Source: Eubacteriales bacterium (lineage in GTDB: Bacteria; Bacillota; Clostridia; Oscillospirales; CAG-382). From it: DNA of 64,000 nucleotides. A program made the translations under genes and the position numbers. The notes beneath the pieces are model-generated. The model saw only the letters and a program-made list of their open reading frames with translations, searched no databases and was not told the DNA's origin. Shown in pieces: positions 19,735 through 49,708 of the stretch; positions within the stretch are counted from its first letter, which is position 1, and each line of letters starts with the position of its first letter. The stretch is from the NCBI GenBank assembly GCA_045532035.1, contig JAZSFD010000107.1:383-64382 (forward strand), written 5' to 3'.

Positions 19735-19744
19735 TGTTTTTCTC

Positions 19745-20789: not shown

Positions 20790-23700
20790 TCAATTGAGAT
20801 AAATATGAAGAATATTTAGCTCCTCGTTTGTCCGATGCAAAATACTGCTCGGTTTCTTTTTAAGATCGGAATTTGCTATGATATCAAAGAAGCCTTGCTT
20901 TTCAATAAGGCGGTCTTTGAAAAGACGCAGCATTTCGGGGGAGGAGAGCTTGAACGAAACGCTCTTTGCTCCTGCGTTCAGCTTTGCCGTCAAAAGCTTA
21001 TTTACCTGCTTTGCATCATATTCTTTGAAGAAAAGCTTGCTTCTGACAAAATAGTTGCAGGAGGTGGCGGTGCATTCGGGATAAAGCTGAGCATCGCTGA
21101 TATTTCTAGATCTGAGAAGCTCTTGCATTGTGATACAGAAATAATCATATGTCATGTCTTTTCCGCCGTCTTTTCGGGAGTCTGTGTTGCTCCTGTCATC
21201 CCAGGTGACATCCACATAATAGTAGTTGCCCTCAAGCTTGACGATATTCCATGCGTGCCACTCGCCGTCGTTGCACTGTCCTTTTACAAATGCACATTCG
21301 ATGCCAAGGCGGTTCATAAGATATTGGAAAGCCTTTGCATAGCCTGCGCAGACAGCTTTCTTTTCGACAAAAACGCCAAAGATAGAGCGGAGATTGTCAG
21401 GTTTCTTGTCGCTGTGGACATCTTGCTCCTGTTCTTCAAGTCCCAATGAGTCATAGTCGATAAGATCAACTATGTTCTCATGCGCAAGAAGTGCAACAGT
21501 GTAGTCGCTCATCGAAACATTTATGCCCTTGAAGAAGGGTTTGACTGCCGATTCGATCTGTTTTTTCCTGCGGGAGACCTCGGATTTTGTCATGATATAG
21601 TTCAAAATGACATTTGTGACTGTGCCGTAGCTGTCATAATGGGTCTGCGCGTAGGTGCGTGCTGTCCAGAAAATGTCGGGATTGTCTCTGATGACGATTT
21701 CCACAAGCTCGCCGATTCTCTCCTTGCTGACCGATCTTACGGGAGGACCCATTTCTGTTTTGAGCTCCATGATTGCCTGATAGATCTGATCATAGACCTC
21801 TTTTTCGTCAGCCGACAGACGGTTGTACCAGAATCTTGGTATGTTGTCGGGAGTACGCTCGGCGATTATCATATCCGGATCTTCCGGTTCGGGCTCGGGA
21901 ATCTCGGGCTCTTCGGGAGCCTCGGGGTCGCGGAGCTTGGTTCTCTTCTGTTTAAGCTCGCTTCCGCAAAGCAGAGCAAAGCTGTCTGTTGTGTTTTCGG
22001 CCGAAAGCAGCTTTTTCAGCTCGTCAAGTCCCGGACTTTGTGCATAGAGCTCTGAAAGAGCATCTGCCTCATTGGTATAATTGAGCGCGTAAAGCACCTG
22101 CATTTCAACATAGTTGGGATGAGCCTTGAAGATATCCGAGCCGTCGTTTACGATATTCTTTTCCTGCCACAGCTCTGTGATAAGTCTTGCGATGACTCCT
22201 GCTGCCGACACTGCGGGCAAACCGAACTCGACATAAACAGAGTTTGTCGCGTGATTGCAATAGCCGATGGGAAGCTCAGGTCCTGTTTTGTTGAATCTTG
22301 AAATAAGATCCTTTGTGGAAACAAAATCAATGCTGATATCCTTGGGGAAGCTATTGGGAACCTCAGTGCTTTCAAGGATGCTGTCACGCACAGAATCAAA
22401 GAGTTTTTCAAGCCCCTCAAAGGTATTGACAGAGCTTTCGATGCAGCTGTGACAAATGACTCTTCCATCCTCAAGAAGCTGTCCCTCATTGTGCTTTATT
22501 GCTTTGTGGCAGAAGAAGCAGGTGTTTGCATCCTTCTTTCTGACAAGCTCAGACCTTTCGATCTCATGTCTGAACTGCCTGAGAAGTACCTCCAGCTGTG
22601 TGATATCAAATATGTCGGGACACTCGGAATAACCAAAGTTGAGATAGTTGAAATCCTTGCCTGCGGGAGAGGTTGCCCATGCGAGAAAATCTGCAACAAC
22701 ATGAAGAAGATTTGTTACAACGATGCCCTCGCCGTCGATAAGAGTTTCGATAACTCCGTTGCTCGGCTCGGTATCCTCGATGATGGCAAATCTGATGCGT
22801 TTTGATTTTTCGGAGGCGTTCTGCTCTTCGCGAGCGGGTTCCTTGGGTGTTTCTGTCTGTGATTCGTCCTGATCGGCATCTGCAGCAACACCGGAGGCTT
22901 CGTCGGAAATGTCAGCTTCTTCGGACGGGATTTCGGGTTGAATTGTGTCGGAGGCCTTTGATTCCTCGGTCTCTTTAGCCTTTGCAGCTTCTTTTTCTTC
23001 CGCTGAAGCGCTTTCTTCAAGGATGATTGTGGGATAGAGATCGCGGATTGCCGAATGCTCCGAGAAGAACTCTTCTTCGTTTACATCATCAAAGAGGGGA
23101 CACACCGAAATACATCTGTACTGATGAGGGAACAGAGTCTTCATCATCTCGTTGAGTATGACAGAAAGGGTGTATGTAAGCTTGGGATTACTGTCAGCCT
23201 TCATATCAAGCGTGACAACAAGCATTTTTGATTTGATGTTTCTTCTGAGCTTTTCAAGAAGCTCGGGATTTGAACGCAGATTGATGTATTTTGCAAAATT
23301 GGTTTTTGCAAGGTCTACATTCTGAACCGCTTTTTCGATGGAATAATAACCGACGGTATCAACGGTTATATCTGCATTAACAAGCTCAAAGCCGACATGG
23401 TAAACAATGCTGTCCTTTGCTCTGAAATCAGGGCCGAAGGTTCTCAGGGTGACGGGGTTTTTGACGTTATATATTCTTGTCTGGATATAATCCATGGGAA
23501 TATTAACGCTTGGACCTGTGTCATCAAGGAACAGTGTTCCGTTTTTGATCGAGATGTCCTTGATGGTATAAGGACGGTTGTTTCTTGTAATGATCTGACC
23601 GGGAATGAAATGCTGTGTGATCTTATTCCTGAAGATCGAAAGATATTCAACGCTTTGAGTGTTGACATATTCGAGTCTGACGGTTTTTGTGGATTCAAGA

Positions 23701-26225
23701 AGCTTCTTGAAAAGACCGTTGGAATCCTCGAAGCGTACATATGTTACTGTTTCAAGGCGGGAATTGAGGAACTTTCTGAGGTTATAGCGGGGCTGATAAT
23801 CCTCGATGGGACCGAAGGCTGTTTCGTAGCAAAGGCGCACACATTTGTCAAGATCCTCACGGCTTTCGCTGAAGCAGTCTTTTTCTTCGCATTTGAGCTT
23901 GTCGCCGAGCAATTCGTAGGCGCGCTTGAGGAAAACGCCCTTTTCCATTCCGTTCACAGCGTCACAAAGAAGAATGATGACGCCTGCTTTGCTGGGATCG
24001 GCGTGTTCGCACATGGTCTCACCGATAAGCTCGAAACGGGAAACGTAATTCTGAGCGCGCGCGGTGAAATAGTCTCTCAGAAGATACGGCTTGCTGATAA
24101 CGTGCAGAACCGAAGAGCTTCTTCCCGAATATCTGGAATAATTGTAGATGGCGTTCGGCAAATCGAAAGCGTCATCCGAAACGATGACATATCCTGTATT
24201 TCCGTCGGAAATGTCACAGCTGTTCATGCAAAGTCCGGGGATCTCGTTCAACTGGCTGTTGTATACCGCTGTCTCTGAAATCAGGTTTATGTTTGAAACT
24301 CCGTCATCGCTGGCATCCTTTGAAAGCTGGACTTCGAGAGCCACCTGATTGGCGCCGTTATCGACATAAAGTGCCGAGGATATTCCCGTGTGCCAGACAA
24401 AAACATCATTTTTGGAGGACAGACCGAAGGAATTGAAGGTTTCAAGAGGTTCGTCACCAAGGTTGAAAAACTGTCTGATGCTGTTGTCGATGGCGTGAAT
24501 GTGACCGTTTGAAAGAAAACGGTATCTTACTCTTTTTGCGGTTTTTGAATTGAATTCGGGATCGTTCACTTGTGATTTGTTGCAAAGAGAGGAGTATCTT
24601 TCCAGCTTTTTTGCAATTATCAGGCAGTAATAATTGTTTGCGGAGAGCACCTTGTCGGTGTTGGGAATAAATACATCCACAAGCTCGTTGAAGAAGCTCT
24701 TTCCGTAGACAAACAGATCCTTTTCGAGGAATTGCGCAGGAGTCAGCATGAGTATATCAGGCTTTTCTCCTTTGTACATATCGTCAAAGGTGCTGATCCT
24801 CCACAGCGCCTGATTTGTTTTTGTGATATGGAGGAAGCCTTCTTTGAGGTATTCAGAGGCTTTTTTGATCTCCTTTTCGTCTTCGCAGATGAAAAGGACA
24901 CGTGTTCCGAATGAGAGCTTCACAAAAAGATAATGAATAATGTATTCACCAAGCGATGAATAGAGGGAGGAGTCGAAAAGAATGTGCTTGTCGTCAAGCA
25001 TTGACTCGATTCCCTGCATATAAGCGTTGTTGATGATCTTTTTGTTGGCTCTGATGGCTTTTGCCATGTTCTGAACCGCCTGCTTTTTCTCGTTGAGATT
25101 ATATGAGCTTTTTGAGGCGGAGGAGTCGGTGTTGAAGGTTTTGATGCGATAGCTTTGACCATATTTGTCAAGAAGCTGCTTGCGGTGGCTGTCGACATCC
25201 TGCTTTTCTTCTTCATAAACACCCTTGGCAAACGAAAGAGCGGGATCCTTCGCTTCGTCGGGCTTTTTATATTCTCCGTCAATAAAGCGGAGTATCTCAA
25301 AAAGCAGGATCAAAGAGATCATGGGGTAGAGATAAGTGTTGCTGACAAGCCACTGGGCAACCGAGTAGAAGCCGGGAAATTTTGTAAATGAGAAAAATAC
25401 AGGGAGAAGCATGGCAAGGCATATGATAAGATATACCACAGCCAGAAGAAACAGAAAATATTTCAGTTCATTTGCCCATCTGAAGGTAGAGGTCTTGACA
25501 TATCTGAAGTTTTCCTGCTTGTTATAAAACAGACCGATGAACTTGAACCACAGCTCCTTAACAAGCTCACCGAGAGTGACAGCTTTGTCTTCCTCGTATA
25601 CTTTTTCGGAGGTGACGGTATCTGTTATTTCTTCGGTGTCGGGATTCTCGGCGATATAATCGGAGGAGATGACCTTGACATTTTTGTTTTTTGATACATT
25701 CTTAAAAACCAGAACCGAATCACGGCGAAGCAGCTTCAAACGCTTTAAGAAAGAATCGCGGTTCTTTTTTTCTCCTGCGTTTTGAGGGGGAGAGGTAATC
25801 TTTTTTCTTTTTTTGTCGGAGGTATCCTCAGAAGAGTTCTTGCTGTTTTTGAAAAATGTCGAATCAAGAAACGCCCGTAAGATCTTTTTTGCCACCAGGA
25901 AGATATATGCGATTATGAGGTTGGAGAGAATAATTACAGCAACACTCACGGTATATACCGCTCTTGCGGGAATCAAACCTATAAGCCACGATAAGAGACC
26001 GAGCTTCAGCAGCCAGTCGAGCAGATTTTTCAACAGGGGGGCGAAGCACAAAAGAAGCAGTCCGAGGAAAATTGTTTCGAGCACAAAGCAGATGTTTCTC
26101 CATCTGCGGCTTTTTGTGTAGCCCACAGATGCCAGAGAGAAAGAAAACTTGTGCGGAAAAAAGGGAAGACACAAAAGGGCGAGAATAACAATGATCGCAA
26201 GTATTTTAAGCGGCAACAGGATCAT
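20790..26225 (-). CDS. 1811-aa polytopic membrane protein with Zn-ribbon, acidic disordered segment and C-terminal transglutaminase-like (papain-fold Cys-His-Asp) domain
   Basis: Hydrophobic helices at aa 1-120 (nt ~25865-26225) and aa ~255-315 (nt ~25290-25470). An acidic low-complexity stretch lies at nt ~22800-23020 (EESASAEEKEAAKAKETEESKASD..DADQDESQTE). CxxC..CxxC motif (CFFCHK..ICHSC) at nt 22440-22525. PE-rich linker (PEAPEEPEIPEPEPEDPD) at nt ~21870-21935. The transglutaminase core is AVCAGYAKAFQYLMNRLGIECAFVKG..EWHAWNIVKLEGNYYYVDVTWDD, with the Cys codon at 21348-21350. The GGAGG RBS and ATG overlap the upstream stop (ATGA). Confidence 0.7.
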   Translation of the reverse strand: MILLPLKILAIIVILALLCLPFFPHKFSFSLASVGYTKSRRWRNICFVLETIFLGLLLLCFAPLLKNLLDWLLKLGLLSWLIGLIPARAVYTVSVAVIILSNLIIAYIFLVAKKILRAFLDSTFFKNSKNSSEDTSDKKRKKITSPPQNAGEKKNRDSFLKRLKLLRRDSVLVFKNVSKNKNVKVISSDYIAENPDTEEITDTVTSEKVYEEDKAVTLGELVKELWFKFIGLFYNKQENFRYVKTSTFRWANELKYFLFLLAVVYLIICLAMLLPVFFSFTKFPGFYSVAQWLVSNTYLYPMISLILLFEILRFIDGEYKKPDEAKDPALSFAKGVYEEEKQDVDSHRKQLLDKYGQSYRIKTFNTDSSASKSSYNLNEKKQAVQNMAKAIRANKKIINNAYMQGIESMLDDKHILFDSSLYSSLGEYIIHYLFVKLSFGTRVLFICEDEKEIKKASEYLKEGFLHITKTNQALWRISTFDDMYKGEKPDILMLTPAQFLEKDLFVYGKSFFNELVDVFIPNTDKVLSANNYYCLIIAKKLERYSSLCNKSQVNDPEFNSKTAKRVRYRFLSNGHIHAIDNSIRQFFNLGDEPLETFNSFGLSSKNDVFVWHTGISSALYVDNGANQVALEVQLSKDASDDGVSNINLISETAVYNSQLNEIPGLCMNSCDISDGNTGYVIVSDDAFDLPNAIYNYSRYSGRSSSVLHVISKPYLLRDYFTARAQNYVSRFELIGETMCEHADPSKAGVIILLCDAVNGMEKGVFLKRAYELLGDKLKCEEKDCFSESREDLDKCVRLCYETAFGPIEDYQPRYNLRKFLNSRLETVTYVRFEDSNGLFKKLLESTKTVRLEYVNTQSVEYLSIFRNKITQHFIPGQIITRNNRPYTIKDISIKNGTLFLDDTGPSVNIPMDYIQTRIYNVKNPVTLRTFGPDFRAKDSIVYHVGFELVNADITVDTVGYYSIEKAVQNVDLAKTNFAKYINLRSNPELLEKLRRNIKSKMLVVTLDMKADSNPKLTYTLSVILNEMMKTLFPHQYRCISVCPLFDDVNEEEFFSEHSAIRDLYPTIILEESASAEEKEAAKAKETEESKASDTIQPEIPSEEADISDEASGVAADADQDESQTETPKEPAREEQNASEKSKRIRFAIIEDTEPSNGVIETLIDGEGIVVTNLLHVVADFLAWATSPAGKDFNYLNFGYSECPDIFDITQLEVLLRQFRHEIERSELVRKKDANTCFFCHKAIKHNEGQLLEDGRVICHSCIESSVNTFEGLEKLFDSVRDSILESTEVPNSFPKDISIDFVSTKDLISRFNKTGPELPIGYCNHATNSVYVEFGLPAVSAAGVIARLITELWQEKNIVNDGSDIFKAHPNYVEMQVLYALNYTNEADALSELYAQSPGLDELKKLLSAENTTDSFALLCGSELKQKRTKLRDPEAPEEPEIPEPEPEDPDMIIAERTPDNIPRFWYNRLSADEKEVYDQIYQAIMELKTEMGPPVRSVSKERIGELVEIVIRDNPDIFWTARTYAQTHYDSYGTVTNVILNYIMTKSEVSRRKKQIESAVKPFFKGINVSMSDYTVALLAHENIVDLIDYDSLGLEEQEQDVHSDKKPDNLRSIFGVFVEKKAVCAGYAKAFQYLMNRLGIECAFVKGQCNDGEWHAWNIVKLEGNYYYVDVTWDDRSNTDSRKDGGKDMTYDYFCITMQELLRSRNISDAQLYPECTATSCNYFVRSKLFFKEYDAKQVNKLLTAKLNAGAKSVSFKLSSPEMLRLFKDRLIEKQGFFDIIANSDLKKKPSSILHRTNEELNILHIYLN

Positions 26226-28417
26226 ACATTTTCCTCCTTCCCATTGTTGTCGGATGTGTTAAGGTCAAGTACAGAATAGATTTTCTGGTTGTCCTTGTCG
26301 TAATAGGATTTTTCGCCGTACAGCGAGAGTCCCGATTCATCAAAGTTGTTTTTGCTTTCATCGTCGAGATCGTTTTCGCTGAAGTCGAGCTTCAGGGTTG
26401 TGATAAAGCGTTTGACTCTTCGTTCAAGATGGTCGAGTCTTACGATGTGATTGTTTTTCATCATGAGCTTTCTGCTGTTTCTGTCGTTGCGCTTTGAGAT
26501 TTCTCTTCTCAGCAGATAGTGGCTTTCGGCGTCAACAATTACATCTCGGTAGTATTCATAAAGCGCTTCAATGCTTTCTCTGCGTTCCTTTTCACTCTGT
26601 TCCTTGTATGTTTCAAGTTCGCTTATAAGCGTTCTCTTCTTTCTCATTATAAGGCTTGAATAGAAGCTGACGGCGCCGCCGTAGAGAACTGCAAAGCCTG
26701 CGGTGAAAAGAACATACATGATCTTGTGGAGCAGATTCTCATTGGCAGATGCGCCCTGAATGAAAAGAAAAGGCAAAATCGAAATGAGAACTGCGATTCC
26801 GGCACCGATCTGCGCCAGCAGATATATCTTACCTTTTTTTGCGGTGTCTACATATTTAATAATAAGATTCTTTGTTTCGAGCAAAATGTTTTCGTTTGAA
26901 GAAAGCTTGTGCTCGGCTTCGGTGACCTTGTTTATAAGCTCTGTATATTCGCGGTCGAAGTCCTCCTCCACCATGACCATTTCGGCGCGGGTATCGGAGG
27001 TGCTGGAAACTGCAGGGTTCTGACCTTTCGCATTGTCGGTCAGGTTTTGTTTTTGGCGGCAGGCTTCTGCCACATTGACAAAATCGTCATCGGTCTGCTT
27101 ATCGCGCCAGTTCCAGAAGCCCTTGAGACAATCTTTTATGACAGAGTCGTTCTGGCTCTTGATGATCTCGGGGTCGTAATTGTTGAAAATGTCTGCGGCG
27201 ATGTCGCCGAATCTTTTGTCTGTTTTGGTTGGCTTGAAGATCGGAAGAACATCTTCTGATCTGAGTCGCTTTTCGCTGCTGTCGGGTTTCAACAGCTCGT
27301 CGATGTTTTTTGCAGGGGATTCGGCATGAGCTGTTTTTTTGCGTTCTTCATAGATGCATTTCTTGGCGTTGTACAGCTCTATTACCGGTTCAAGCTCTAT
27401 TGTGATGTTTTCTTCTTTGGAAAAATATGTATATTTTCTCAGTGCTTCCAGGAGCACCTTTTTGATTTCGTCTTTGGAATAATTCTTAATGTTGTTTAAG
27501 ACAGTCTGTTCCTGCACACAGGTGAAAATGTTTGCAAGAACATTAAAATATCCCTCAAGCAGGCTTTGCTCATTTTCAGTAACTATATCAAATGCGAAAG
27601 CCGAGATGCTGAAGCTGTTAACAATATGACTGCTGATGTCAAACTCTCTGACAGAGGAGTGCTCTCCGTTTTTGTTCCAGTTGTTTATCAATTCTGTTAC
27701 AGCGGCAAGGGCAATATCGATCACATGGACATTTTTGGCTGATGCTTTTATTGCCTTATCGGTCTCGCTGAAGATCGAGCTGAAATCAAGGCTGTCAAGC
27801 TTTGTTTTGTTCCACAAAATATCATCAGCTTTGCTGTCTTCTGTCCATGAAAATATATCAAGTATGTTTTTTTCGGTTTTTGAACGTTTTTTTCCGTTAG
27901 ACTGCGTTGTAATGTCGTCGCCTATGAGGTCTCCGTCATCGGAGCGCGCGACAGAACGGTTCTTTTTTTCGGCTTCGAGGATGCGTTTTCTTTCGTTTTC
28001 TTCGGCCTCCTCGGGATTTGCGGCGGAATATTCGATCTCGGTTTTTGAATATTTGAATGAATCAACAAAGAAGATCGCCGCCTGATTAGGTCTAAGGTCG
28101 TGATTTGCCTTAAGGGGATCGATAAGGAAAGCGGAAAGGTATTTTGTGAGCAACACCTTGTAAATTGCGGAAACTTCCTTTTCCTGACTGCGGTATAATC
28201 CGTACAGGTCGACAAGAACCAAGAGATTATAGTTCCTGTCGACTGTATCGGCGTTGTCAATGAGTTCACGCTCGATGATGGCGGGATAATTCGCAATATT
28301 GCAGAATTTATCCTCATCGAACCATATCAAGCTGCTTTGATCAAAAGGAGCTTTGAACAGAATATTAAGTTGTGTTTTTTTGGCTTCAACAGAAGTGTTT
28401 ATGACTATTGTTCTCAT
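26222..28417 (-). CDS. 731-aa membrane protein of unknown function (cytoplasmic alpha/beta N-domain, two-helix membrane hairpin, basic coiled-coil tail)
   Basis: Long ORF with an AAAGGAG RBS. Two hydrophobic helices (LLAQIGAGIAVLISILPFLFI, IMYVLFTAGFAVLYGGAVSFYSSLIM) lie at nt ~26650-26835. The stop overlaps the start of the 1811-aa gene. I recognise no family motif. Confidence 0.6.
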   Translation of the reverse strand: MRTIVINTSVEAKKTQLNILFKAPFDQSSLIWFDEDKFCNIANYPAIIERELIDNADTVDRNYNLLVLVDLYGLYRSQEKEVSAIYKVLLTKYLSAFLIDPLKANHDLRPNQAAIFFVDSFKYSKTEIEYSAANPEEAEENERKRILEAEKKNRSVARSDDGDLIGDDITTQSNGKKRSKTEKNILDIFSWTEDSKADDILWNKTKLDSLDFSSIFSETDKAIKASAKNVHVIDIALAAVTELINNWNKNGEHSSVREFDISSHIVNSFSISAFAFDIVTENEQSLLEGYFNVLANIFTCVQEQTVLNNIKNYSKDEIKKVLLEALRKYTYFSKEENITIELEPVIELYNAKKCIYEERKKTAHAESPAKNIDELLKPDSSEKRLRSEDVLPIFKPTKTDKRFGDIAADIFNNYDPEIIKSQNDSVIKDCLKGFWNWRDKQTDDDFVNVAEACRQKQNLTDNAKGQNPAVSSTSDTRAEMVMVEEDFDREYTELINKVTEAEHKLSSNENILLETKNLIIKYVDTAKKGKIYLLAQIGAGIAVLISILPFLFIQGASANENLLHKIMYVLFTAGFAVLYGGAVSFYSSLIMRKKRTLISELETYKEQSEKERRESIEALYEYYRDVIVDAESHYLLRREISKRNDRNSRKLMMKNNHIVRLDHLERRVKRFITTLKLDFSENDLDDESKNNFDESGLSLYGEKSYYDKDNQKIYSVLDLNTSDNNGKEENV

Positions 28418-28457: not shown

Positions 28458-31400
28458 TTAGCCGAAATATTTGTTGAACAAAGCGGAAGCCCAGACAAAG
28501 CGTTTGTCTTTCTGAACAGCTTCACTTGCTTCGAAATCAAATACCTTTGCACCGTTGTCGGTAATGGGGTCTTCATCAAGATCCTCGGTGCTTCTACCGA
28601 AGTTGTTTTTCTTGGGTTCTTCCTTCGCTTCGGCCTTCATCTGCTTTGAAAGGGTTGCGACATATTCTTCCATAAACTTGTTGGCAATATGTGTGTAAAC
28701 ATCCTGATAACATCTGTAGGCTTCGTTTCCTGTATCTTTGTGCGCGATAGCATCGGCATTGTAAGGAGCGGCAGCGTATCTGTGGATGATATTGCAAAGA
28801 GTTTCGATGAGCAATTCTCCGTAATCCTTGTCGTGCTCGGTTTCCTCACTTGTATGTACATTATATGCGAATTCGATGAGGTTCATAGGATCCTTTTTCT
28901 TGGGAGCGGCCTTTGCTTTTCCGTTCTTTGCGCTGTCGATTTCAATGTTTCTGAGGATGTTTCTCTTGAACTGATTGAGGATGGCAGCGTAATTTGTGAT
29001 GCCTGTCTTGTATTCGCCGACATTCTCGCTGTATTTCGAAAGCTTTTCGATTTCGATGCCGATTCTTGCATCAAACTGAGACGAGTAGCTTTCAATGAGG
29101 CTTTCCTGATCGGCAAACCAGTTCATGACCCTGTTCAGCTTGAAATAGGGGATGGTCTTGCCCTTGTGAATGAGGATCTTATAATCCTGATCGCGGTTCG
29201 GGTCGCCGAATACGATTCTGGCATCAGAACCGTCGATGTCATATCCGATCTTTCCGTAGGTGATGGCAAAGAGGAATGCCTTTGCAAGGTCAAGACGGCG
29301 TTCTTCTTCCTTCTTGACATTGATGTACGGCATAACTCCGTGCTTGTGCCAACGCTTATCAAGGTGGGGAGACATCGAATAGCACTGAAGAGCTTCCATT
29401 TCTGCGATTCTCTTTGAATAATGCTCGAAGTATACACCGCCGTTGATTTCATCAAAGGGCTTGATCTGATAAGGCTGGAGACAGTGAACTGTTGAGTAGC
29501 AGAGAACTGTGTAGGGATCTACATTTTCACTGTTGACACAGTTGAGATTTACTGTCTGGCGCTGAGTATCCTTGGGAAGCATGGACGACATCTTGTCAAA
29601 GAAGGAGAATACGGAATCACCCGTAAGTTCTTCAACACGATCCTTGTTGACGGGATTGAACGAAAGATATCTGTAGAAGTTTGATACAGGCGGTTTTTTG
29701 TAATAAACATCGCCGTTTTCGTCCTCTACATCAAACATTCCGCTGTAATTGTCCGCGATATCGTATGAAAGGAAGGGCGCTGCCATCTGAACAAGGGTTT
29801 TGAACTTTCCGGAAATGAACTGGTCGAGTCTGTTTCTTGCCGCATCATCCTTGGAATAGGTTGCCTCGTCATCTTTGAATTCGGGAGAGGTAAGGGAGTA
29901 TTCATAAAGAAGAGCCTGGAAAACATTCATGTTGATCTTGTCCTGGACTTCCTTATTTTCGTGGATGCTGTCTGAAACGATGCTTGAAACGGTGTTGAAG
30001 AGACCGTCGATGCCGGTTGCTTTCTGGTCAACACCGAGCTTCTTTGCGGAGCCGGTGGATCTTATGCGCATGGCCTCGAAAAGTGCTTTGCTGATACTGC
30101 TTGCGGTAGATCCTGTTTTGGTGTTGATAAGGGAACCGCAGTCTTCATACATTTCGCGCTTGATGCGAGAAGAGGCACAAACATAAACATTTCCTCTGGC
30201 AAGCTCATGCTTTTTCTCGGAGGTTGTAATGGCGCCCTGTGTCTTTGTGGCGAATTCGTCAAGCTTGTCAAAGAACAACTCATATTCTGTGATAAGCTTT
30301 TGAAGTCTTTCGCTCACCTTGACGAGAGAGAAGTACATAAGAGCATCGACAAACACATCGTTTGCTTCGTTGAGCTTTCTGTCAAGAGTGGAGAAATAGC
30401 TGCTGACTTCTTTGACGGTAGCTTTTTTGCCGAACCATCTGTTCATTCTGTTTTCGAGGATCTTCTTGTTGGAGATGCCTTCCTCGCTTTCGCTTGCTCT
30501 GAGGACTTTGCGCTGCTTTTCAACCACCATTGTCATGAGGTAAGCGTAAAAATCATCGGCATCATCGGCTGCGGTATCTACCGGACTGATGATTTCTTCT
30601 GCCTTTTCATCGATTGCCAGCTTGAATTTATAGAGGAGATAGCGTGCTGCTACGGGGTGAATGTAATCGCCGGTTTTGTCATCGACGAGAAGACCGTTGA
30701 TGATGCCGATATCGCTTTTGTCGTAGAACTTCCACATCGAGCAATCTTCACAGAGAATTTTGTTAGAAAAGGCGATCGACTGGTCGATTGCAAAGTTGAG
30801 ACCCTTTTCGCAGTAATCGTCGATGTTTTCGTCAATATCGGAGATGGCCCAGAAAATGTTGCTGTCATCGTCCTTGCCCGAGCTGTTGTTGATCTTGGAA
30901 AGGATGCTTGCCTTTGCGCCGCCGATATCGCCGATATGTTCATCCTTTGCTTTGTTTATTCTGTCGTCACCGGCAATTTCTGAAGCTGCAAGAGACTTGA
31001 TCTTTTTCATGAGAGCGACAGAAGCATTTTCGCTGTTGCGAATAACAGAAGGTGCGAGGAATGAGAATTCATTCTTTGAAACACCTGTGGTCTTAACTCT
31101 CTTTTCGAAGGTGTTTATATAATGATTTGCTCTTTCGCCGGGTTCGGGAACATATGCCGGAAGACCGGAAGACTGAGCCACCATGTCCTTTTCCTTGCGG
31201 TAATTTTTCCACTCGTCATCGATGGCATTCCATACCGAATCAAGGCTGTCCTTCAATGCACGGTATGCAAAATAATTGACTATGTCATCGTGGGGATATT
31301 TCATCGAAGCGGCACCCGCGCTTCCGTAAATTGCCGACGGAGCGAGAGTGTGGGCGTGCATTTCGTTGGATTCGTTGGACCATACTTCACCCGAAATGTC

Positions 31401-32291
31401 TGTGTACAGATGTGAATAAGCTATATTTGCCATAGCCTTGTAGTATTCGGGAAGACCGCCCAGAATCTTGGAAAGATAGTTGAGCTTGTCGATGAAGTAA
31501 AGGATGTCGTAGGGCTTTTCGCCGTATCTGCCTTCGGAATCCTTTTCAAAAAGCTTGCCTTCACAGTCTGTGCTGATCTCGATGTCGAGATCGAGCTTTC
31601 CGCCGTATGCCGCGGTTGTGTCGGGGCCGCAGATGAGGTTGAAGGCGTTGAGCTCTCTGATGACGGCATATGCGTTTGCATAAAGGTTGGGGAGCATTTG
31701 AGCGGTAACAACGTTCTTGTAAAGATCGGGGCAGGCAAAAAGTCCGTGAACAACGGCATCAACACCTCTGTCTCTGAAGAACTTTTTGACATAGAGGGCA
31801 ACCTGAATGAATATACCCGAGCCTGTGCCGCCTGCGATGGAAGAGGCAATGAGAATTACAGGAGGCTTATCTTCGGCTGTGGTTGCTGTGGGGTCAAGCA
31901 TGAGGGAATCTTCAAGAATGCGTTCAAGTTCGTTTTTAGAATCCTTCAAGAAATTTGCAAGGCAGAGTCTTGACTTGAGTCTGCACTGCGAAGCACCGCC
32001 GAAAAGAGTGGAGGCAAAGAAGTTGCCTTCGTTGGGAGTGTTGGGGCACCATTCTCCTACATCTCCGCCGACGGAATTGTAATAATCGCCGACAGTGCCG
32101 TCTCCGCTGAGGCAGATCTTATTAACACCGAGCTGAGAAAGATGGTTGAGCTCATCCTGGTCGGTATCTATGGCAATACATGCCACATCGCTTTCAAAGC
32201 CCTTTCCGCGCTCATCAATGAGTCTTTTGTAGAGCTCTGTGATGATTTTGCCTCCGCTTCCGCCGAGACCGATAAAGTAATTGTGTTTCAT
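28458..32291 (-). CDS. Giant tubulin/FtsZ-superfamily GTPase (Pfam 'Tubulin_2'-like) with a ~950-aa C-terminal extension
   Basis: The N-terminus FIGLGGSGGKI (nt 32247-32270) resembles the T1 glycine loop. ILIASSIAGGTGSGIF carries the tubulin/FtsZ signature [SAG]GGTG[SAT]G (AGGTGSG at nt 31815-31835, checked codon by codon). AAGGAG RBS 7 nt before the ATG. Confidence 0.75.
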   Translation of the reverse strand: MKHNYFIGLGGSGGKIITELYKRLIDERGKGFESDVACIAIDTDQDELNHLSQLGVNKICLSGDGTVGDYYNSVGGDVGEWCPNTPNEGNFFASTLFGGASQCRLKSRLCLANFLKDSKNELERILEDSLMLDPTATTAEDKPPVILIASSIAGGTGSGIFIQVALYVKKFFRDRGVDAVVHGLFACPDLYKNVVTAQMLPNLYANAYAVIRELNAFNLICGPDTTAAYGGKLDLDIEISTDCEGKLFEKDSEGRYGEKPYDILYFIDKLNYLSKILGGLPEYYKAMANIAYSHLYTDISGEVWSNESNEMHAHTLAPSAIYGSAGAASMKYPHDDIVNYFAYRALKDSLDSVWNAIDDEWKNYRKEKDMVAQSSGLPAYVPEPGERANHYINTFEKRVKTTGVSKNEFSFLAPSVIRNSENASVALMKKIKSLAASEIAGDDRINKAKDEHIGDIGGAKASILSKINNSSGKDDDSNIFWAISDIDENIDDYCEKGLNFAIDQSIAFSNKILCEDCSMWKFYDKSDIGIINGLLVDDKTGDYIHPVAARYLLYKFKLAIDEKAEEIISPVDTAADDADDFYAYLMTMVVEKQRKVLRASESEEGISNKKILENRMNRWFGKKATVKEVSSYFSTLDRKLNEANDVFVDALMYFSLVKVSERLQKLITEYELFFDKLDEFATKTQGAITTSEKKHELARGNVYVCASSRIKREMYEDCGSLINTKTGSTASSISKALFEAMRIRSTGSAKKLGVDQKATGIDGLFNTVSSIVSDSIHENKEVQDKINMNVFQALLYEYSLTSPEFKDDEATYSKDDAARNRLDQFISGKFKTLVQMAAPFLSYDIADNYSGMFDVEDENGDVYYKKPPVSNFYRYLSFNPVNKDRVEELTGDSVFSFFDKMSSMLPKDTQRQTVNLNCVNSENVDPYTVLCYSTVHCLQPYQIKPFDEINGGVYFEHYSKRIAEMEALQCYSMSPHLDKRWHKHGVMPYINVKKEEERRLDLAKAFLFAITYGKIGYDIDGSDARIVFGDPNRDQDYKILIHKGKTIPYFKLNRVMNWFADQESLIESYSSQFDARIGIEIEKLSKYSENVGEYKTGITNYAAILNQFKRNILRNIEIDSAKNGKAKAAPKKKDPMNLIEFAYNVHTSEETEHDKDYGELLIETLCNIIHRYAAAPYNADAIAHKDTGNEAYRCYQDVYTHIANKFMEEYVATLSKQMKAEAKEEPKKNNFGRSTEDLDEDPITDNGAKVFDFEASEAVQKDKRFVWASALFNKYFG

Positions 32292-32326: not shown

Positions 32327-35300
32327 TCAGATTTGATTGCCGTTTCTGCGGAAGAACACGATTGCAAGCTGCTTTTCCTGAACCTCGCAGATAAATTCGT
32401 TTTCAAGGTTGATGCTGATGCCTTCCTTGGGATCGAAGCGGGTTTGGCGACCGATGAGCCTGCCTTCTTCAAAGGTATCTCTGGTGTCAAAGGCAAGGAT
32501 TCTGTCCAAATATGTTTGATTCAGTGCGCCTGTGTTGAAGACATAATCTTCGGGAGTGATATCGATAGTGGGTTTGCGCTCTATCGTCCAATGCGGATAG
32601 GTTCTTTCAAGACCAAAGGCGCGGGGGGCTATAAGATCTGCCGAATGTTCAAAAACACATACTCTTTTGCGCATACTCTTGAAAGGAAGCAGCACTTGAT
32701 GGGGGAGAACATACGGACGCTTTTTTATTACATTTACATCAATAAGGTTCCAGTCCCCGACAGTGTTCTTTCTGAAGGTTGCCCTGTAGAGCTTTCCCTT
32801 TATAAATCTTATTCGAGTGATGCAGCAGAATGTGAAATAAGCAACGAAAGCTATCACACCGAGAACCACCCAGAATATGATGAGAACTAAGGGGTTGGTG
32901 TTGACATGCACTATTGCGCTTACCTGCTGATCGTTGAAGGAGAGAACTATTTCTGTATCTCCGTCTTTGACAAGAAACAGATTTGCCCATTCCCAAAGGC
33001 TTGGGGAAATGAATGTCCAGCCGTTGTAGCAGGGTCTGACAAACAGATATCCGGTTTCGTCACCGGCGTCAAGAACTTTCACATCAAGTCCGATGTGCTT
33101 TTTGTTTTTGTTGAGATAAACGTTGCAATCGAGAGCCTCAAGCTCAGCCTTTGACAAAACTCTTGTATCTCTTGAAATTTCAAATTCAACACCGTCGGTG
33201 TTTTTTGTAAGCTCCACATCAACGACGGTTATGCCATCTTTTCTGACTGAAACCGAATGCTTGGGAGCAAGCACCGAAACTTCTGCTTTGCAGGGTTCTG
33301 CCGCGATCTGCTCAATAGAGGCGGTTATCGTGTGTGTCTTTTTGACATCTATGCCTGTTATTGCCGTGTAAGGAACGGCGCCTGCTGCATTTTCGTCATA
33401 TTGCGGGGTGAAAGACTTTCCGACGGGAAGATTTCCGTCATACACCGTTTCGATCTTGCCGGGAAGCTCGCCGTTATCGATCACAAGCCCGTTTGCAATT
33501 TCTGTGTCCCATTTTGCAAGAGGACCATAGTTTTCGCCGCCCGAATAATCTGCAAGAAGTGTGTAGACGATCTTCTTCTGATTCTTTTTGAGAGAGTCAA
33601 GGTTGAGATCTTCGGAAATCTCGGATTCTGCAGAGATCTTGTAGGCAGCTTTGCTTATGGCGATGGTGAATGCTTCCGATTGGATTGTACTGCCGTTCAC
33701 GCTTACCGTGGCGTAGATTTTGTGTTCTTTTCCAAGAATGTTTGCGGGGGAGTCCGAGCCGAGGTTTGGAACGAAGCTTAATGAGCCGTCGCTTTCCTTT
33801 ACGATCTCACCGGGAAGACCCGCGGTCTCGATCTTGAGTGTTTCATATATTTCCTTGTCGATCTCGGCAAGAGGACCGTAATTCTCGCCGCCCTCATAGT
33901 CGGCAAGGAGAGTAAAGGTCATTTTGTCCTTGTTACTCTTAAGAGTGTCAACAGAGAAGGTCTCAGGGAGTGAATTGTCAAGTTTTATCATGTATGAGGA
34001 GCTGCTGATAAATACCGTGATCTCTTCGGAGTCAAGAGTGGTATCTCCGACCTTGGCTGTGGCGGAAAGCTTGTGCTCCTTGTTGAGAATGTCCTCGGTC
34101 TTTAGTTTTTTGTCTTTTGGATCAAAAGAGGGGACAAAGCTTACCGAATCCTTTTCTTTTGTGAGCTTGCCGGGGAGTGTGGTGCTGTTCAGTTCAATGC
34201 TGAAGGTGCCCTTGTCGCACGCCGACTCGCTTATCGGAATAAACTTTCCGTCATTTTCGTAATCGGCAACGATTGTATAAGTGATGGCTTTTTTGTTTGA
34301 CTCAAGCTCAATGATCGAAAGCTGTGTGCTCAAAAGGTCTTTTTCGGTCTCGATTTTGTATTGAGGCTTTATTACCTCAACAGTTCTTGTCAGAATCGAT
34401 TGACCGTCAAAACAGACCGAAACCGAAAAGCTTTGGGGAAGTGAATTGAAATCCTGAGAAGCTTTTGGAGTATATATGATGCTTTTACCGCTTGTTTTCA
34501 CTTCGGAGAGCTCCGAGCATTTTCCGCTGTTGAAGCCGTTTGCTCCCTCGATCTTTATTTCAAGGTCATCAAGAATTCCGCTGTAAAGGTTCGAAAAAGG
34601 AAATTCAATTCCGTTTTTGCCGTTTGCCCAGTCATTAAAAAGGGGCTTTGTGAGGGAAATCTTTGCGGAATCTCCCGTCAGCGCCGAGGTGTCGATTACG
34701 GGTCTTCCTTTTATCTTTCCCAGCGATTCTTTCTGAACGAAAGGCTGATAACCGTCAAGGGTGGCTTCAATCTTCAGCTCTTTCCCCTCATAGTCTTTTT
34801 GCATGGTTACGACATATGAGCCGTTTTCGGTGTCTGCGTTTGTGACGGCTTTACCGTTGATATACAGGGTGTACTCGGGATTGAGAACATCGGAGGACAC
34901 CTTTGCGCCGAGCTTTCCGTTTTCTTCGATCTCAAAAAGTCCGCATTTGATGGCGAAAGAATCGCCTTCGTGGAGCTTATCCTTTATGTCCGAAAAGCTC
35001 AGAGGATCGGGATCGTCGCCCACATAGTATTCACATCCGAGCTTTACCGCAGGTTCCACAAGCACGACCACATTGCTCTTGTCGATGCCGTATGCCGAAA
35101 GATCGATGCTGTAATTTCCCTTGGGGAGGGGGGAGGCTGTGTCTTTGTTGGCTATAAGTGAAACGAAACCGTAGGGACGGTTTTCAGGAACTTTGTGCTC
35201 GACGGTGAGTATGTAATTCTTTGTTTCTTTAGGGGAGGGCTCCGGACAGTCGAGATTAAAACTTTTAACTTCGAAGGAAATGCCTTTCTGACTGCAGGTT

Positions 35301-36145
35301 ACAGGGAGCGCGATATCTCCGAAAGGTGAGTTTTCCTTCTGGACAAGAAGCGAAATGTTGTGCGCTGGATATTCAAGATCAAAGGTAAGCGTTCCGTTGC
35401 TGACAGCAGTCTTTGCGGTGATGTCAGTGCGTCCCATGATGGTTGCAGAGATATCTTTAACTGAGCTGATGATTTCTTTGCTCGACTTGGCTTTGCTCAC
35501 TGAGATTCCGTCAAGACCGCTTGCCGAAACGCTGTCTCCCATCATAAAAAAGATGGTTTCAAAGTCTGCACCATTGATGAATTCTTTTACTTTGCCGTCA
35601 GCCCAAAGCAGTTCGCTTGAAAAAGTCTTATCCTCTGTGTGGAAGGTGGTGTTTTGATCCAACTGACCATCTGCCATTACCACAAGGTAATATTTTGCAT
35701 TGTTTTTGTAAGTTCTATATGCTTCTTCAAGTTTTTTATATCCGGTTTCGAGTTCATTGTCTGTTCCACCTTCGACCAGCAGCTGTTTGAGTTTTTCTAT
35801 TTCGTTCTTCTTTTGTGTGCCAAGGTTAACTTTTCCGCTTTTGATGCCGGTTTTGTTTTTTTCTTGTTCTTCATCGTTCAGATATGTTACATAAAGAACA
35901 TCTTCTTCACCCATCATGGCGATAAAAGCCTGCATTGCATAGCTTGAGTAAGCCCATCTGAAGTCTGCATCTGCATCATTTGAATTTTTTCCCAGTCCTG
36001 CCATACTTGCAGAGTCATCAAACACAATTGATACGATTCTCGGTATATGCTTCGGAGAGGCTGATTCGTCAGCGGATACCGAAACGAATGTGGCGGAGGT
36101 TATGAGTATTAGCAATGACAGCAATGTCAAAAATATCTTTTTCAT
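32327..36145 (-). CDS. Secreted, C-terminally membrane-anchored von Willebrand factor A (vWA) protein with Ig-like repeats and a cytoplasmic tail
   Basis: ATG 36145 with AGGAG upstream. Signal peptide MKKIFLTLLSLLILITSATFVSVSA|DES. Complete MIDAS set: DDSAS (nt 36005-36019), GGTD, MADG. A beta-rich region follows with three ~120-aa tandem repeats. A single TM helix LVLIIFWVVLGVIAFVAYFTFCCI (nt ~32813-32896) is followed by the basic stretch RIRFIKGKLYRATFRK and a ~160-aa tail. Confidence 0.8.
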   Translation of the reverse strand: MKKIFLTLLSLLILITSATFVSVSADESASPKHIPRIVSIVFDDSASMAGLGKNSNDADADFRWAYSSYAMQAFIAMMGEEDVLYVTYLNDEEQEKNKTGIKSGKVNLGTQKKNEIEKLKQLLVEGGTDNELETGYKKLEEAYRTYKNNAKYYLVVMADGQLDQNTTFHTEDKTFSSELLWADGKVKEFINGADFETIFFMMGDSVSASGLDGISVSKAKSSKEIISSVKDISATIMGRTDITAKTAVSNGTLTFDLEYPAHNISLLVQKENSPFGDIALPVTCSQKGISFEVKSFNLDCPEPSPKETKNYILTVEHKVPENRPYGFVSLIANKDTASPLPKGNYSIDLSAYGIDKSNVVVLVEPAVKLGCEYYVGDDPDPLSFSDIKDKLHEGDSFAIKCGLFEIEENGKLGAKVSSDVLNPEYTLYINGKAVTNADTENGSYVVTMQKDYEGKELKIEATLDGYQPFVQKESLGKIKGRPVIDTSALTGDSAKISLTKPLFNDWANGKNGIEFPFSNLYSGILDDLEIKIEGANGFNSGKCSELSEVKTSGKSIIYTPKASQDFNSLPQSFSVSVCFDGQSILTRTVEVIKPQYKIETEKDLLSTQLSIIELESNKKAITYTIVADYENDGKFIPISESACDKGTFSIELNSTTLPGKLTKEKDSVSFVPSFDPKDKKLKTEDILNKEHKLSATAKVGDTTLDSEEITVFISSSSYMIKLDNSLPETFSVDTLKSNKDKMTFTLLADYEGGENYGPLAEIDKEIYETLKIETAGLPGEIVKESDGSLSFVPNLGSDSPANILGKEHKIYATVSVNGSTIQSEAFTIAISKAAYKISAESEISEDLNLDSLKKNQKKIVYTLLADYSGGENYGPLAKWDTEIANGLVIDNGELPGKIETVYDGNLPVGKSFTPQYDENAAGAVPYTAITGIDVKKTHTITASIEQIAAEPCKAEVSVLAPKHSVSVRKDGITVVDVELTKNTDGVEFEISRDTRVLSKAELEALDCNVYLNKNKKHIGLDVKVLDAGDETGYLFVRPCYNGWTFISPSLWEWANLFLVKDGDTEIVLSFNDQQVSAIVHVNTNPLVLIIFWVVLGVIAFVAYFTFCCITRIRFIKGKLYRATFRKNTVGDWNLIDVNVIKKRPYVLPHQVLLPFKSMRKRVCVFEHSADLIAPRAFGLERTYPHWTIERKPTIDITPEDYVFNTGALNQTYLDRILAFDTRDTFEEGRLIGRQTRFDPKEGISINLENEFICEVQEKQLAIVFFRRNGNQI
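33266..34366 (-). repeat. Three tandem ~117-127-aa protein repeats inside the vWA gene
   Basis: Repeat units start at YKIETEKD.., YMIKLDNS.. and YKISAESE... They share L(K/E)SN.K.(I/M)T(Y/F)T(I/L)(V/L)ADY.(G/N)(G/D).NYGPLA, LPG(K/E), SF(V/T)P and KEHK(L/I).AT. The units have diverged at the DNA level. Confidence 0.8.
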
Positions 36146-36201: not shown

Positions 36202-36230
36202 ATTCTATCACTTGTGTCACATTTTGTCAA
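36202..36230 (-). promoter_or_regulatory. Near-consensus SigA promoter of the vWA/tubulin-like operon
   Basis: On the minus strand: TTGACA (36225-36230), a 17-nt spacer, TAGAAT (36202-36207). It lies ~55 nt upstream of ATG 36145 and immediately downstream of the terminator of the preceding operon. Confidence 0.75.
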
Positions 36231-36282
36231 TACTTGCGTTCATATTATTATATAAAAATATTATATAATTGCAAAAAATGTA

Positions 36283-36322
36283 CCGCACCGAGCGGATTTG
36301 ACTCGATGCGGCAGTGAAAAAT
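36283..36322 (-). terminator. Rho-independent terminator after the asparaginase-like gene
   Basis: On the minus strand CCGCAUCGAG pairs with CUCGGUGCGG (10 bp including one G-U) at 36293-36302 / 36312-36321, followed by ACAUUUUUUG. It lies 33 nt after the stop at 36355. Confidence 0.7.
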
Positions 36323-49699: not shown

Positions 49700-49708
49700 A
49701 TTGGCACC

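Follow-up and report, generated by a model that had tools for sequence, protein, structure and literature searches.

A very divergent FtsZ-like protein encoded within a conserved four-gene membrane cassette of gut Clostridia

The present work examines a cassette of four large genes, termed A, B, C and D, on the minus strand of a 64,000-nucleotide (nt) stretch of DNA from an Eubacteriales bacterium (contig JAZSFD010000107.1 of assembly GCA_045532035.1); this whole stretch is referred to as the window. Judging from its sequence, the product of gene B is a very divergent FtsZl1 member of the tubulin/FtsZ superfamily, and the family itself is not new. What is new is that the four genes keep a near-strict synteny over about 80 species, that the partners of B are annotated, and the complementary distribution of predicted peptidase centres in D. 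Also new are an extension of B that has no relatives by fold and occurs only in fused form, a conserved C-terminal peptide, and support from structural models for the missing canonical T7 loop and activation domain. On balance, B probably acts as a nucleotide-gated assembly or switch scaffold, which couples the surface protein A to D and C at the membrane.

Proteins of the Pfam family PF13809 were described in silico as 'FtsZ-like 1' (FtsZl1) by Makarova & Koonin (2010, Biol Direct 5:33; PMC2875224). In that description they usually reside in operons with von Willebrand factor A (vWA) genes, sometimes together with GTPases, kinases or OmpA-like proteins, and a role in membrane remodeling was predicted for them (PMC2875224). 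An earlier reading of the window from its letters, referred to here as the sequence-only reading, had called such proteins essentially uncharacterized experimentally; this is correct for experiments, but overlooks the computational description as FtsZl1, vWA linkage included (PMC2875224). A phylogenetic paper of 2023 employed Tubulin_2 proteins as an outgroup only. Within the tubulin/FtsZ superfamily, FtsZl1 is the branch that has diverged furthest.

The FtsZ-like domain of B

The features of gene B are as follows (coordinates are those of the window; aa, amino acids; AF2, AlphaFold2; pLDDT, predicted local distance difference test).

28458..32291, minus strand: gene B, 1277 aa, ATG start, FtsZl1-type tubulin/FtsZ-superfamily protein; no transmembrane segment found in a hydropathy scan
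31242..32276, minus strand: predicted Tubulin_2 (PF13809) GTP-binding domain, aa 6-350 (Pfam, AF2, Foldseek)
32244-32276, minus strand: T1 loop FIGLGGSGGKI, aa 6-16
32160-32174, minus strand: T2-like loop AIDTD
31980-32000, minus strand: T3-like loop GGASQCR
31815-31844, minus strand: T4 loop SSIAGGTGSG, aa 150-159
28623..31241, minus strand: family-specific extension, aa 351-1223, about 880 aa, AF2 pLDDT 89
28461..28622, minus strand: acidic linker and C-terminal peptide, aa 1224-1277

The open reading frame (ORF) is real, and its proposed membership in the tubulin/FtsZ superfamily is borne out by the Pfam search that the sequence-only reading had recommended. The PF13809 (Tubulin_2) model matches B with E=9.4e-39 and 134.1 bits (gathering cut-off 27) over model positions 2-355 of 356, and PF00091 gives a weak match confined to aa 6-70. 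The FtsZ_C domain of Pfam was not found in B, and neither NCBIfam, PADLOC nor the sequences of the PDB yielded a match. Among 5.8 billion proteins, 110 homologues were collected, nearly all of them 1100-1370 aa long and all of them (110/110) carrying PF13809; those with names are 'hypothetical protein' entries of Clostridia metagenome-assembled genomes (MAGs).

Conservation was assessed in an alignment of 86 sequences with 22-80% identity. The invariant residues comprise G8, G10, G11 and G13 of T1, further D42, G99 and R104, then G154, G155, T156, G157 and G159 of T4, followed by P188, N206, E213, N309 and G326; they thus map to the T1, T2-like, T3-like, T4 and T5-like loops and to a few later residues. 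The T1-like nature ascribed to FIGLGGSGGKI is in keeping with its four invariant glycines. The T4 signature is likewise invariant, yet the interval nt 31815-31835 previously given for it spans the core AGGTGSG only.

An AF2 model of aa 1-420 was built on the same alignment (mean pLDDT 82, predicted TM-score 0.73). Its elements follow the order S1 (4-9), T1, H1, S2 (37-42), H2 and S3 (57-60), then a family-specific helical insert (aa 61-98), the T3-like loop, H3, S4 (145-151), T4, H4 and S5 (180-186). The T1 residues G8-L-G10-G11-S-G13 directly follow the model strand 4-9, and the T4 residues A153-G-G-T-G-S-G159 follow the strand 145-151. A 24-residue helix (197-220) then carries N206 and E213, the stretch 221-262 is poorly ordered, and a single strand (263-267) precedes D268 and N271, after which the model is almost entirely helical. 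Foldseek comparison of the model with the PDB produced 34 matches with E<1e-3, the best being CetZ2 (4b45_A, E=1.9e-6) and Staphylococcus aureus FtsZ (5mn6), with a probability of 1.00, target-normalized TM-scores of 0.33-0.50 and identities of 10-18%. The first 350 or so residues of B thus have, in the model, an FtsZ/tubulin GTP-binding fold.

The sequence-only reading had allowed that the glycine motifs might belong to an unrelated Rossmann-like fold, which would make the tubulin assignment spurious. Two results point that way: the family hidden Markov model and the 86-sequence profile reach no FtsZ or tubulin among PDB sequences, only helical-bundle noise, and hhalign of the family profile against Escherichia coli FtsZ aligns T1-T2 alone, with a probability of 30% and without locating T7. 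Against these stand the Tubulin_2 match across the whole 356-position model and the order S1-T1-H1 ... S4-T4-H4-S5, which fits the family. The idea was rejected because the top 50 Foldseek matches of the AF2 model are exclusively FtsZ, CetZ and tubulins, and it is now barely credible. Since the Pfam clan model, the structural matches and the invariant T1 and T4 loops agree, the predicted place of B in the superfamily is far beyond a chance match.

An extension known only in fused form, and a C-terminal peptide

The sequence-only reading had also noted a large non-tubulin extension with no recognizable motif, and the searches agree with it. About 925 aa lie beyond the Tubulin_2 domain, and a second AF2 model, covering aa 401-1277, shows them to be mostly helical, including a 55-residue helix (aa 621-675) and two small alpha/beta regions (aa ~862-936 and ~1015-1046). 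Low model confidence is found in a Lys-rich loop near aa 1111-1137 and in the acidic stretch 1224-1256. Conserved motifs of the extension are HPxAARYLLY (545-554), LQPxQI (938-943) and PHLDKRWH (975-982). Models of Pfam, NCBIfam and PADLOC and the sequences of the PDB gave no match to it, and Foldseek returned nothing significant from the PDB (best E=0.07, TM-score 0.08) or from BFVD (best E=0.13). A phmmer search against 1.84 billion representative proteins gave 153 clusters, whose full-length members are nearly all 1100-1340 aa in size, with the match starting near residue 400; shorter ones are fragment-like. On this evidence the extension appears to be found only fused to the tubulin-like domain, because the full-length matches all but invariably have this size and this starting point.

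The acidic linker (aa 1224-1256) is variable, with gap-rich alignment columns and low pLDDT. Behind it, the last 14 residues of B form a confidently modeled helix, a short amphipathic peptide with a conserved Trp, W1267, which at least 85% of 108 homologues possess. The peptide reads RFVWASALFNKYFG in the window, and other examples are SYDWVCAQLGKAF and EYRWVTSQWKLK. We infer for it a role in docking or membrane targeting. The statement that B lacks an FtsZ-type C-terminal peptide consequently needs to be divided: a peptide of the D-I-P-x-F-L type is indeed missing, but a conserved Trp-containing one exists behind the acidic linker.

A four-gene cassette with its own promoter

The cassette consists of the following features, in addition to gene B.

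36281..36313, minus strand: predicted intrinsic terminator (13-pair stem and T-run), which closes the upstream unit of two TIR genes and an asparaginase-like gene
36202..36230, minus strand: predicted Sigma-70/SigA-type promoter of the cassette (TTGACA, 17-nt spacer, TAGAAT, extended -10 TG)
32327..36145, minus strand: gene A, 1272 aa from the ATG at 36145; signal peptide, extracellular vWA domain, Ig-like repeats, transmembrane segment and tail
26222..28417, minus strand: gene C, 731 aa; its stop and the start of D share 4 nt (ATGA)
20790..26225, minus strand: gene D, 1811 aa; about five N-terminal transmembrane helices and a large cytoplasmic body

The promoter matches the consensus at 11 of 12 positions, and is the best promoter-like site in the region; behind it come a ribosome-binding site, AGGAG, and then the ATG at 36145. 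The terminator, the best terminator-like site in 18.5 kb, marks the upstream boundary. The cassette thus has its own predicted promoter and is insulated from the upstream genes by a predicted terminator. Its genes are tightly spaced, with gaps of 35 nt between A and B and 40 nt between B and C, and the 4-nt overlap of C and D.

The contexts of the cassette were compared by profile searches in 80 GTDB species loci and seven others, the contexts of six homologues being among the sources; loci are cited below by number (L001 and so on) where they need to be told apart. The order A-B-C-D is kept in essentially every locus with enough flanking sequence, which amounts to about 80 loci from different species, so that the dedication of B to its operon, as suggested earlier, extends well past the window. 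The earlier view that the gene stands outside a division and cell wall (dcw) context also agrees with its neighbors, which are TIR genes and an asparaginase-like one, besides three large genes without a name. A relative of B is encoded by 307 species genomes, mostly of gut bacteria. The carriers are mainly gut Oscillospiraceae, Acutalibacteraceae, Faecousia, Christensenellaceae and Ruminococcus, and further ones are found among Fusobacteria, Turicibacter, Evansella, Longimicrobium and Desulfocapsa. Relative to L001, the proteins of the window show 40% (A) and 43% (C) identity versus 57% (B) and 58% (D), A and C thus diverging faster.

B is the sole predicted nucleoside triphosphatase (NTPase) of the cassette, since no conserved Walker A motif occurs in A, C or D; a single GxxxxGKS in the ectodomain of A is not conserved. 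Two tandem tubulin-like genes are present in L056, L057, L059, L062, L065, L070, L071, L080 and L087, mostly from Christensenellaceae and other Clostridia, and in about half of these two-paralogue cassettes the second paralogue has lost the T4 motif GGTGSG. This arrangement, with T4 frequently missing from the second copy, is a hint that B may self-associate. At L078, three to four tandem B paralogues are present, and A, C and D were not detected there.

The membrane partners

Protein A appears to be a surface receptor. The residues of its metal-ion-dependent adhesion site (MIDAS), D43-x-S45-x-S47, T128 and D159, do not vary in any of 78 distinct orthologues (78 of 78), and some orthologues match the Pfam models VWA_2 (E=3.9e-5) and VWA (E=1.1e-3). 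The transmembrane scan places one helix at aa 1086-1104, followed by a cytoplasmic tail of 168 aa. The A profile found no match in the PDB, and neither NCBIfam nor PADLOC matched A. The ectodomain contains repeated beta-rich modules of about 100 aa ('...LDSLKKNxKKIxFTLLADYxGxxNY...'), about three copies of which occur in the window and in L006, fewer in L001, and none in L002, L004 and L005. A GTG at 36220, from which the longest ORF of A would begin, was rejected as its start: all orthologues start at an MKK that corresponds to nt 36145, and the promoter and ribosome-binding site agree with the latter.

Protein C is composed of a cytoplasmic N-terminal part of about 530 aa, a transmembrane hairpin (aa 533-551 and 566-584) and a helical tail of about 150 aa. 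It matched nothing in Pfam, NCBIfam or PADLOC, its profile matched nothing in the PDB, and a 17-sequence C profile retrieved orthologues only. The C profile does not detect a match in the loci that diverge most, yet there a protein of 650-900 aa with a transmembrane hairpin occupies the same relative position between B and D. In a Longimicrobium MAG (L077, 6739-12609), a D-like protein of 1957 aa directly follows B with no separate C, and may represent a C-D fusion. In 'Bacteroides' capillosus the gene at the position of C belongs to family 'B5' of Makarova & Koonin (PMC2875224), a family which is encoded immediately downstream of the GTPase in Clostridium kluyveri. Because of this position, C may, on the literature, be the GAP1 protein of Kaur, Burroughs, Iyer & Aravind (2020, eLife 9:e52696; PMC7159879). 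GAP1 proteins consist of N, M and C domains, often with C-terminal transmembrane segments or SLATT; C has a large N-terminal part followed by a transmembrane hairpin.

Protein D is a polytopic giant. Its N-terminal transmembrane region, with a Lys/Arg-rich cytoplasmic loop, is followed by a large orphan region and by three recognizable elements.

22443-22520, minus strand: Zn ribbon CxxC...CxxC (four Cys), aa 1236-1261
22164-22181, minus strand: degenerate zincin motif ITELWQ, aa 1349-1354
about 21195-21356, minus strand: predicted transglutaminase-like triad Cys1626-His1657-Asp1672 in the C-terminal domain

The last of these matches PF01841 (Transglut_core) above the cut-off (E=7.8e-7), and in the same domain the D profile matches PDB entry 9crn_A with E=1.7e-31. 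C1626, H1657 and D1672 are kept in all D orthologues that bear the transglutaminase-like domain, and in every one of these the zincin motif is degenerate (TELWQ or RELTHVWQ). An intact HExxH (HELxHxWQ) is found only in the D proteins without that domain, from L005, L077, L079, L083 and L085, and this site gives weak, repeated metallopeptidase matches (DUF6782, BSP). Since the HExxH and the Cys-His-Asp centers are complementary across orthologues, D seems always to carry one predicted active peptidase or transamidase center. NCBIfam and PADLOC gave nothing for D except a sub-threshold transglutaminase-lipoprotein match, and the middle region of D retrieved orthologues only in the homologue search, with no new domains. 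Motifs such as 'LTPxxFL' and 'DVFxxDxDK' in the central part of D had suggested a degenerate domain of helicase-like or P-loop type, an idea that was dropped for want of a Walker A motif and of database support.

By their transmembrane segments and the positive-inside rule, the body of D, the N-terminal part of C and the tail of A are predicted to be cytoplasmic, alongside B.

Genomic neighborhood

The cassette is surrounded by genes for TIR-type proteins.

38393-39373, minus strand: upstream unit, 326-aa protein with two TIR domains
37344-38396, minus strand: upstream unit, 350-aa TIR protein; overlaps the two-TIR gene by 4 nt
36355-37410, minus strand: upstream unit, 351-aa asparaginase/GatD-like protein
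19745..20776, minus strand: DUF4062 (TIR-like) gene, 343 aa, DUF4062 E=5.6e-20, 13 nt downstream of D
16741-18819, plus strand: 692-aa protein with TIR_2 (aa 166-267) and Sel1/TPR repeats

The three genes at 36355-39373 may form an undescribed TIR-based system of two or three genes. In the syntenic relative L090/L091, too, a pair of TIR and asparaginase-like genes lies upstream of the cassette. At the other end, no terminator-like site was found on the minus strand in the 13-nt gap between D and the DUF4062 gene, and the two may be co-transcribed in this genome; the DUF4062 gene lies outside the conserved cassette, being missing downstream of D in L001, L002, L004-L006, L090 and L092. A recent report describes DUF4062 proteins as TIR-like NADases that belong to the 'Swarozyc' defense system. 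After the DUF4062 gene comes an inositol-monophosphatase-family gene (18967-19869, minus strand), the longest ORF of which overlaps the DUF4062 end and which is missing downstream of D elsewhere. The region from 16.7 to 39.4 kb resembles a TIR-rich island, with four TIR-type genes within 23 kb between housekeeping genes; UvrA and SpoVT are encoded on one side, and AraC, PfkB and KDPG aldolase on the other.

TIR genes directly upstream of A were seen in the syntenic L090/L091 and in the non-syntenic L092 and L002, and according to an iterative search, about 8-9 of some 80 non-redundant loci carry TIR-like ORFs in the 10 kb upstream. In L006/L007 the cassette is flanked by phage-like genes, coding for a DnaG-type Zn-ribbon primase, a GH25 lysin and several small ORFs, and this copy may lie in or beside a prophage. 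The idea that the cassette is phage-borne was rejected, as viral collections gave one weak IMG/VR match and one unannotated INPHARED fragment.

Elsewhere in the window, two complete pairs of a PFL-like glycyl-radical enzyme and a radical-SAM activase are encoded at 42557-45650 and 47720-50563. A further PFL-like ORF (2711-4075, 454 aa) matches only model positions 338-641, the C-terminal half, and may be truncated.

A scaffold, a filament or a pseudo-enzyme

In the mechanism that is held to be probable on balance, B would bind GTP and work as an assembly or switch scaffold on the inner face of the membrane, where it may form homo-oligomers, or hetero-oligomers where two paralogues exist. By means of its extension and C-terminal peptide it would dock onto those parts of A, C and D that lie in the cytoplasm. 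What happens outside the cell at the vWA/MIDAS site would then be relayed through B to activate or position the peptidase or transamidase of D, and the membrane hairpin of C might also be coupled to A through B.

The original proposal of Makarova & Koonin (PMC2875224) envisages a different machine, in which B would be a cytomotive filament former like FtsZ or TubZ, whose GTP-driven polymerization remodels the membrane or forms vesicles together with its transmembrane partners. Such a role gains from the place of B in the tubulin/FtsZ superfamily and from the fact that A, C and D are all membrane proteins; the linker and C-terminal peptide recall the tethering layout of FtsZ, and a duplicated B with one degenerate copy recalls alpha/beta-tubulin. 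However, the sequence-only reading had asked for a T7 synergy loop in an AlphaFold model, and no canonical T7 loop is seen there: the NxDxxD/E motif is absent, the S7-S10 beta-sheet of the C-terminal activation domain is not seen, and the chain is almost entirely helical after the strand 263-267. Makarova & Koonin were likewise able to align FtsZl1 only as far as H5, not over T6-H7, and themselves doubted canonical filament formation (PMC2875224). The modest TM-scores fit a match to the nucleotide-binding half alone, every subunit would carry a globular helical body of 880 aa, and a peptidase effector and a MIDAS receptor are unexpected in a pure remodeling machine. A filament of this kind is therefore considered unlikely.

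As no T7 catalytic residue could be made out, B might also be a pseudo-enzyme, which holds GTP or GDP without hydrolysis or polymerization and serves as the scaffold of a static A-B-C-D complex. The large, rigid and confidently folded extension would suit such a role, and the loss of T4 in second paralogues shows that the fold tolerates the loss of nucleotide binding. Yet the full set of phosphate and ribose loops is invariant in the 86 sequences, down to 22% identity, which exceeds the usual need of a structural cofactor. In addition, the alignment shows conserved acidic residues, E213 and E307 (the latter in 'SxESNE'), as well as a Gly-rich loop at 317-332, and the two acidic residues could provide catalysis in cis or in trans. 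The pseudo-enzyme is accordingly rated as quite improbable.

The nucleotide-gated scaffold has to face a number of adverse points, several of which concern a conflict output in particular. As no T7/H8 catalytic motif or C-terminal activation domain was identified, B may be a simple binder rather than a GTPase stimulated by polymerization. The interactions among A, B, C and D follow from synteny and topology only, the latter having been read from a crude hydropathy scan, and full-text literature searches found no experimental work on FtsZl1, 16 years after its description in silico. A search of PADLOC-DB v2.0.0 gave no match at E<=0.01 for A-D and matched only the neighboring TIR proteins, and the cassette is nearly absent from viral collections. 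A general location in defense islands is unsupported: among 149 proteins encoded beside the cassette at 64 loci, housekeeping functions prevail and no defense family is enriched, the defense-type matches being isolated ones (type III CRISPR, mads, ZorA-like), and what remains is the local TIR link. The association with TIR genes is suggestive, the raw count having no background control. An extracellular MIDAS receptor would, furthermore, also suit adhesion or envelope sensing.

Pointing toward a conflict role are the combination of NTPase, vWA protein and peptidase that the systems of Kaur et al. (PMC7159879) also show, the TIR-type genes around the cassette here and upstream of A elsewhere, the swappable catalytic module of D, the variable length of the A ectodomain and the patchy phyletic distribution. 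The role of the cassette is thus seen with a slight lean to a conflict or immune type; within the scaffold mechanism, a conflict or immune output receives roughly one third of the weight, the rest being split between envelope or surface remodeling and other roles. A more daring form of the scaffold mechanism, speculative but conceivable, would make the cassette a prokaryotic outside-in signaling or immune machine. An integrin-like MIDAS-vWA receptor with Ig-like legs would bind a ligand, e.g. phage, a competitor or host matrix, whereupon a GTP-dependent tubulin-like assembly on the tail of A would license D and C; TIR NADases encoded directly upstream would be added effectors in some lineages. 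If true, the FtsZl1 branch would thereby gain its first functional role, and a tubulin-like protein would for the first time act as an immune or signaling switch rather than as a cytoskeletal element.

Whichever role applies, the four genes form a compact and well-defined unit, strictly conserved and under a predicted promoter of their own. Its elucidation would show whether a tubulin-fold GTPase can be a signaling or assembly switch for a protease, and whether B polymerizes without a recognizable T7 loop and activation domain. A new response that is triggered at the surface might also come to light in abundant gut Clostridia. The B extension of about 880 aa and most of C and D are likely to represent new fold space, since they lack structural or sequence relatives.

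Comparison with known systems

With FtsZ, CetZ, TubZ and the tubulins, B shares a Rossmann-like domain and the loops T1 (GxGGxG), T2-like (D-T-D), T3-like (G-A-S-Q) and T4 (GGTGSG). Like FtsZ, it ends in a short conserved peptide behind a disordered linker, although the peptide is unrelated in sequence to that of FtsZ. It differs from all of these in its identity of 10-18%, in an insert of about 40 aa between S3 and T3, in its extra body of about 880 aa, in showing no NxDxxD/E T7 motif and, in its model, no S7-S10 activation domain, and in its context, which is neither dcw nor plasmid partition.

Tubulin proteins together with extracellular vWA proteins were described by Kaur et al. in the GAP1-N2 DO-GTPase conflict systems of Firmicutes and Actinobacteria (PMC7159879). 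These systems resemble the cassette in having a tubulin protein with a helical or coiled-coil C-terminal part, an extracellular-vWA membrane protein and transmembrane partners, in a variant with two tubulin genes, and in the predicted regulated assembly near the membrane. In contrast, a Pfam and Walker A scan found no P-loop DO-GTPase gene in or beside the cassette of the window, which also has no YtkA-vWA gene or clear FNIII protein, and possesses the giant polytopic peptidase protein D instead. Their hosts are multicellular, whereas those of the cassette are mostly unicellular gut Clostridia. Because the defining DO-GTPase is missing, the cassette as predicted here is not a GAP1-N2/DO-GTPase system as defined.

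The MoxR-vWA-peptidase 'ternary' systems of the same authors likewise combine one NTPase, one vWA protein and a peptidase effector, for which a caspase, a trypsin or, in rare cases, a thiol peptidase of the transglutaminase-like type may serve (PMC7159879). The cassette differs from them in that its NTPase is tubulin-like and not an AAA+ MoxR, that a type-I membrane protein displays its vWA domain outside the cell, and that EAD adaptor domains were not recognized in it. By analogy, its layout may be likened to such 'conflict systems' of NTPase, vWA and peptidase (PMC7159879) and, loosely, to integrin outside-in signaling.

The closest counterpart is FtsZl1 itself (PMC2875224), with which B shares an FtsZ-like GTP-binding domain at the N-terminus, inserts peculiar to the family between T1 and T4, a long region of helices and a C-terminal part that is alpha-helical, the lack of an alignable T6-H7 or C-terminal domain, and a vWA gene located directly upstream. 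In the 2010 paper, B5 and B12 bear no annotation, and it did not report the peptidase centers, the C-terminal peptide or the strictness of the cassette. Its supplement lists, for 'Bacteroides' capillosus ATCC 29799 (now Pseudoflavonifractor), a cultured carrier of the cassette, BACCAP_04124 (vWA, 861 aa), 04123 (FtsZl1, 1183 aa), 04122 (family B5, 658 aa) and 04121 (family B12, 1435 aa), the order and sizes of which match those of L005 almost exactly (PMC2875224). Compared to this set, B of the window is longer (1277 aa) and its D has an extra transglutaminase-like domain; nothing essential differs, and vWA/FtsZl1/B5/B12 corresponds to A-B-C-D.

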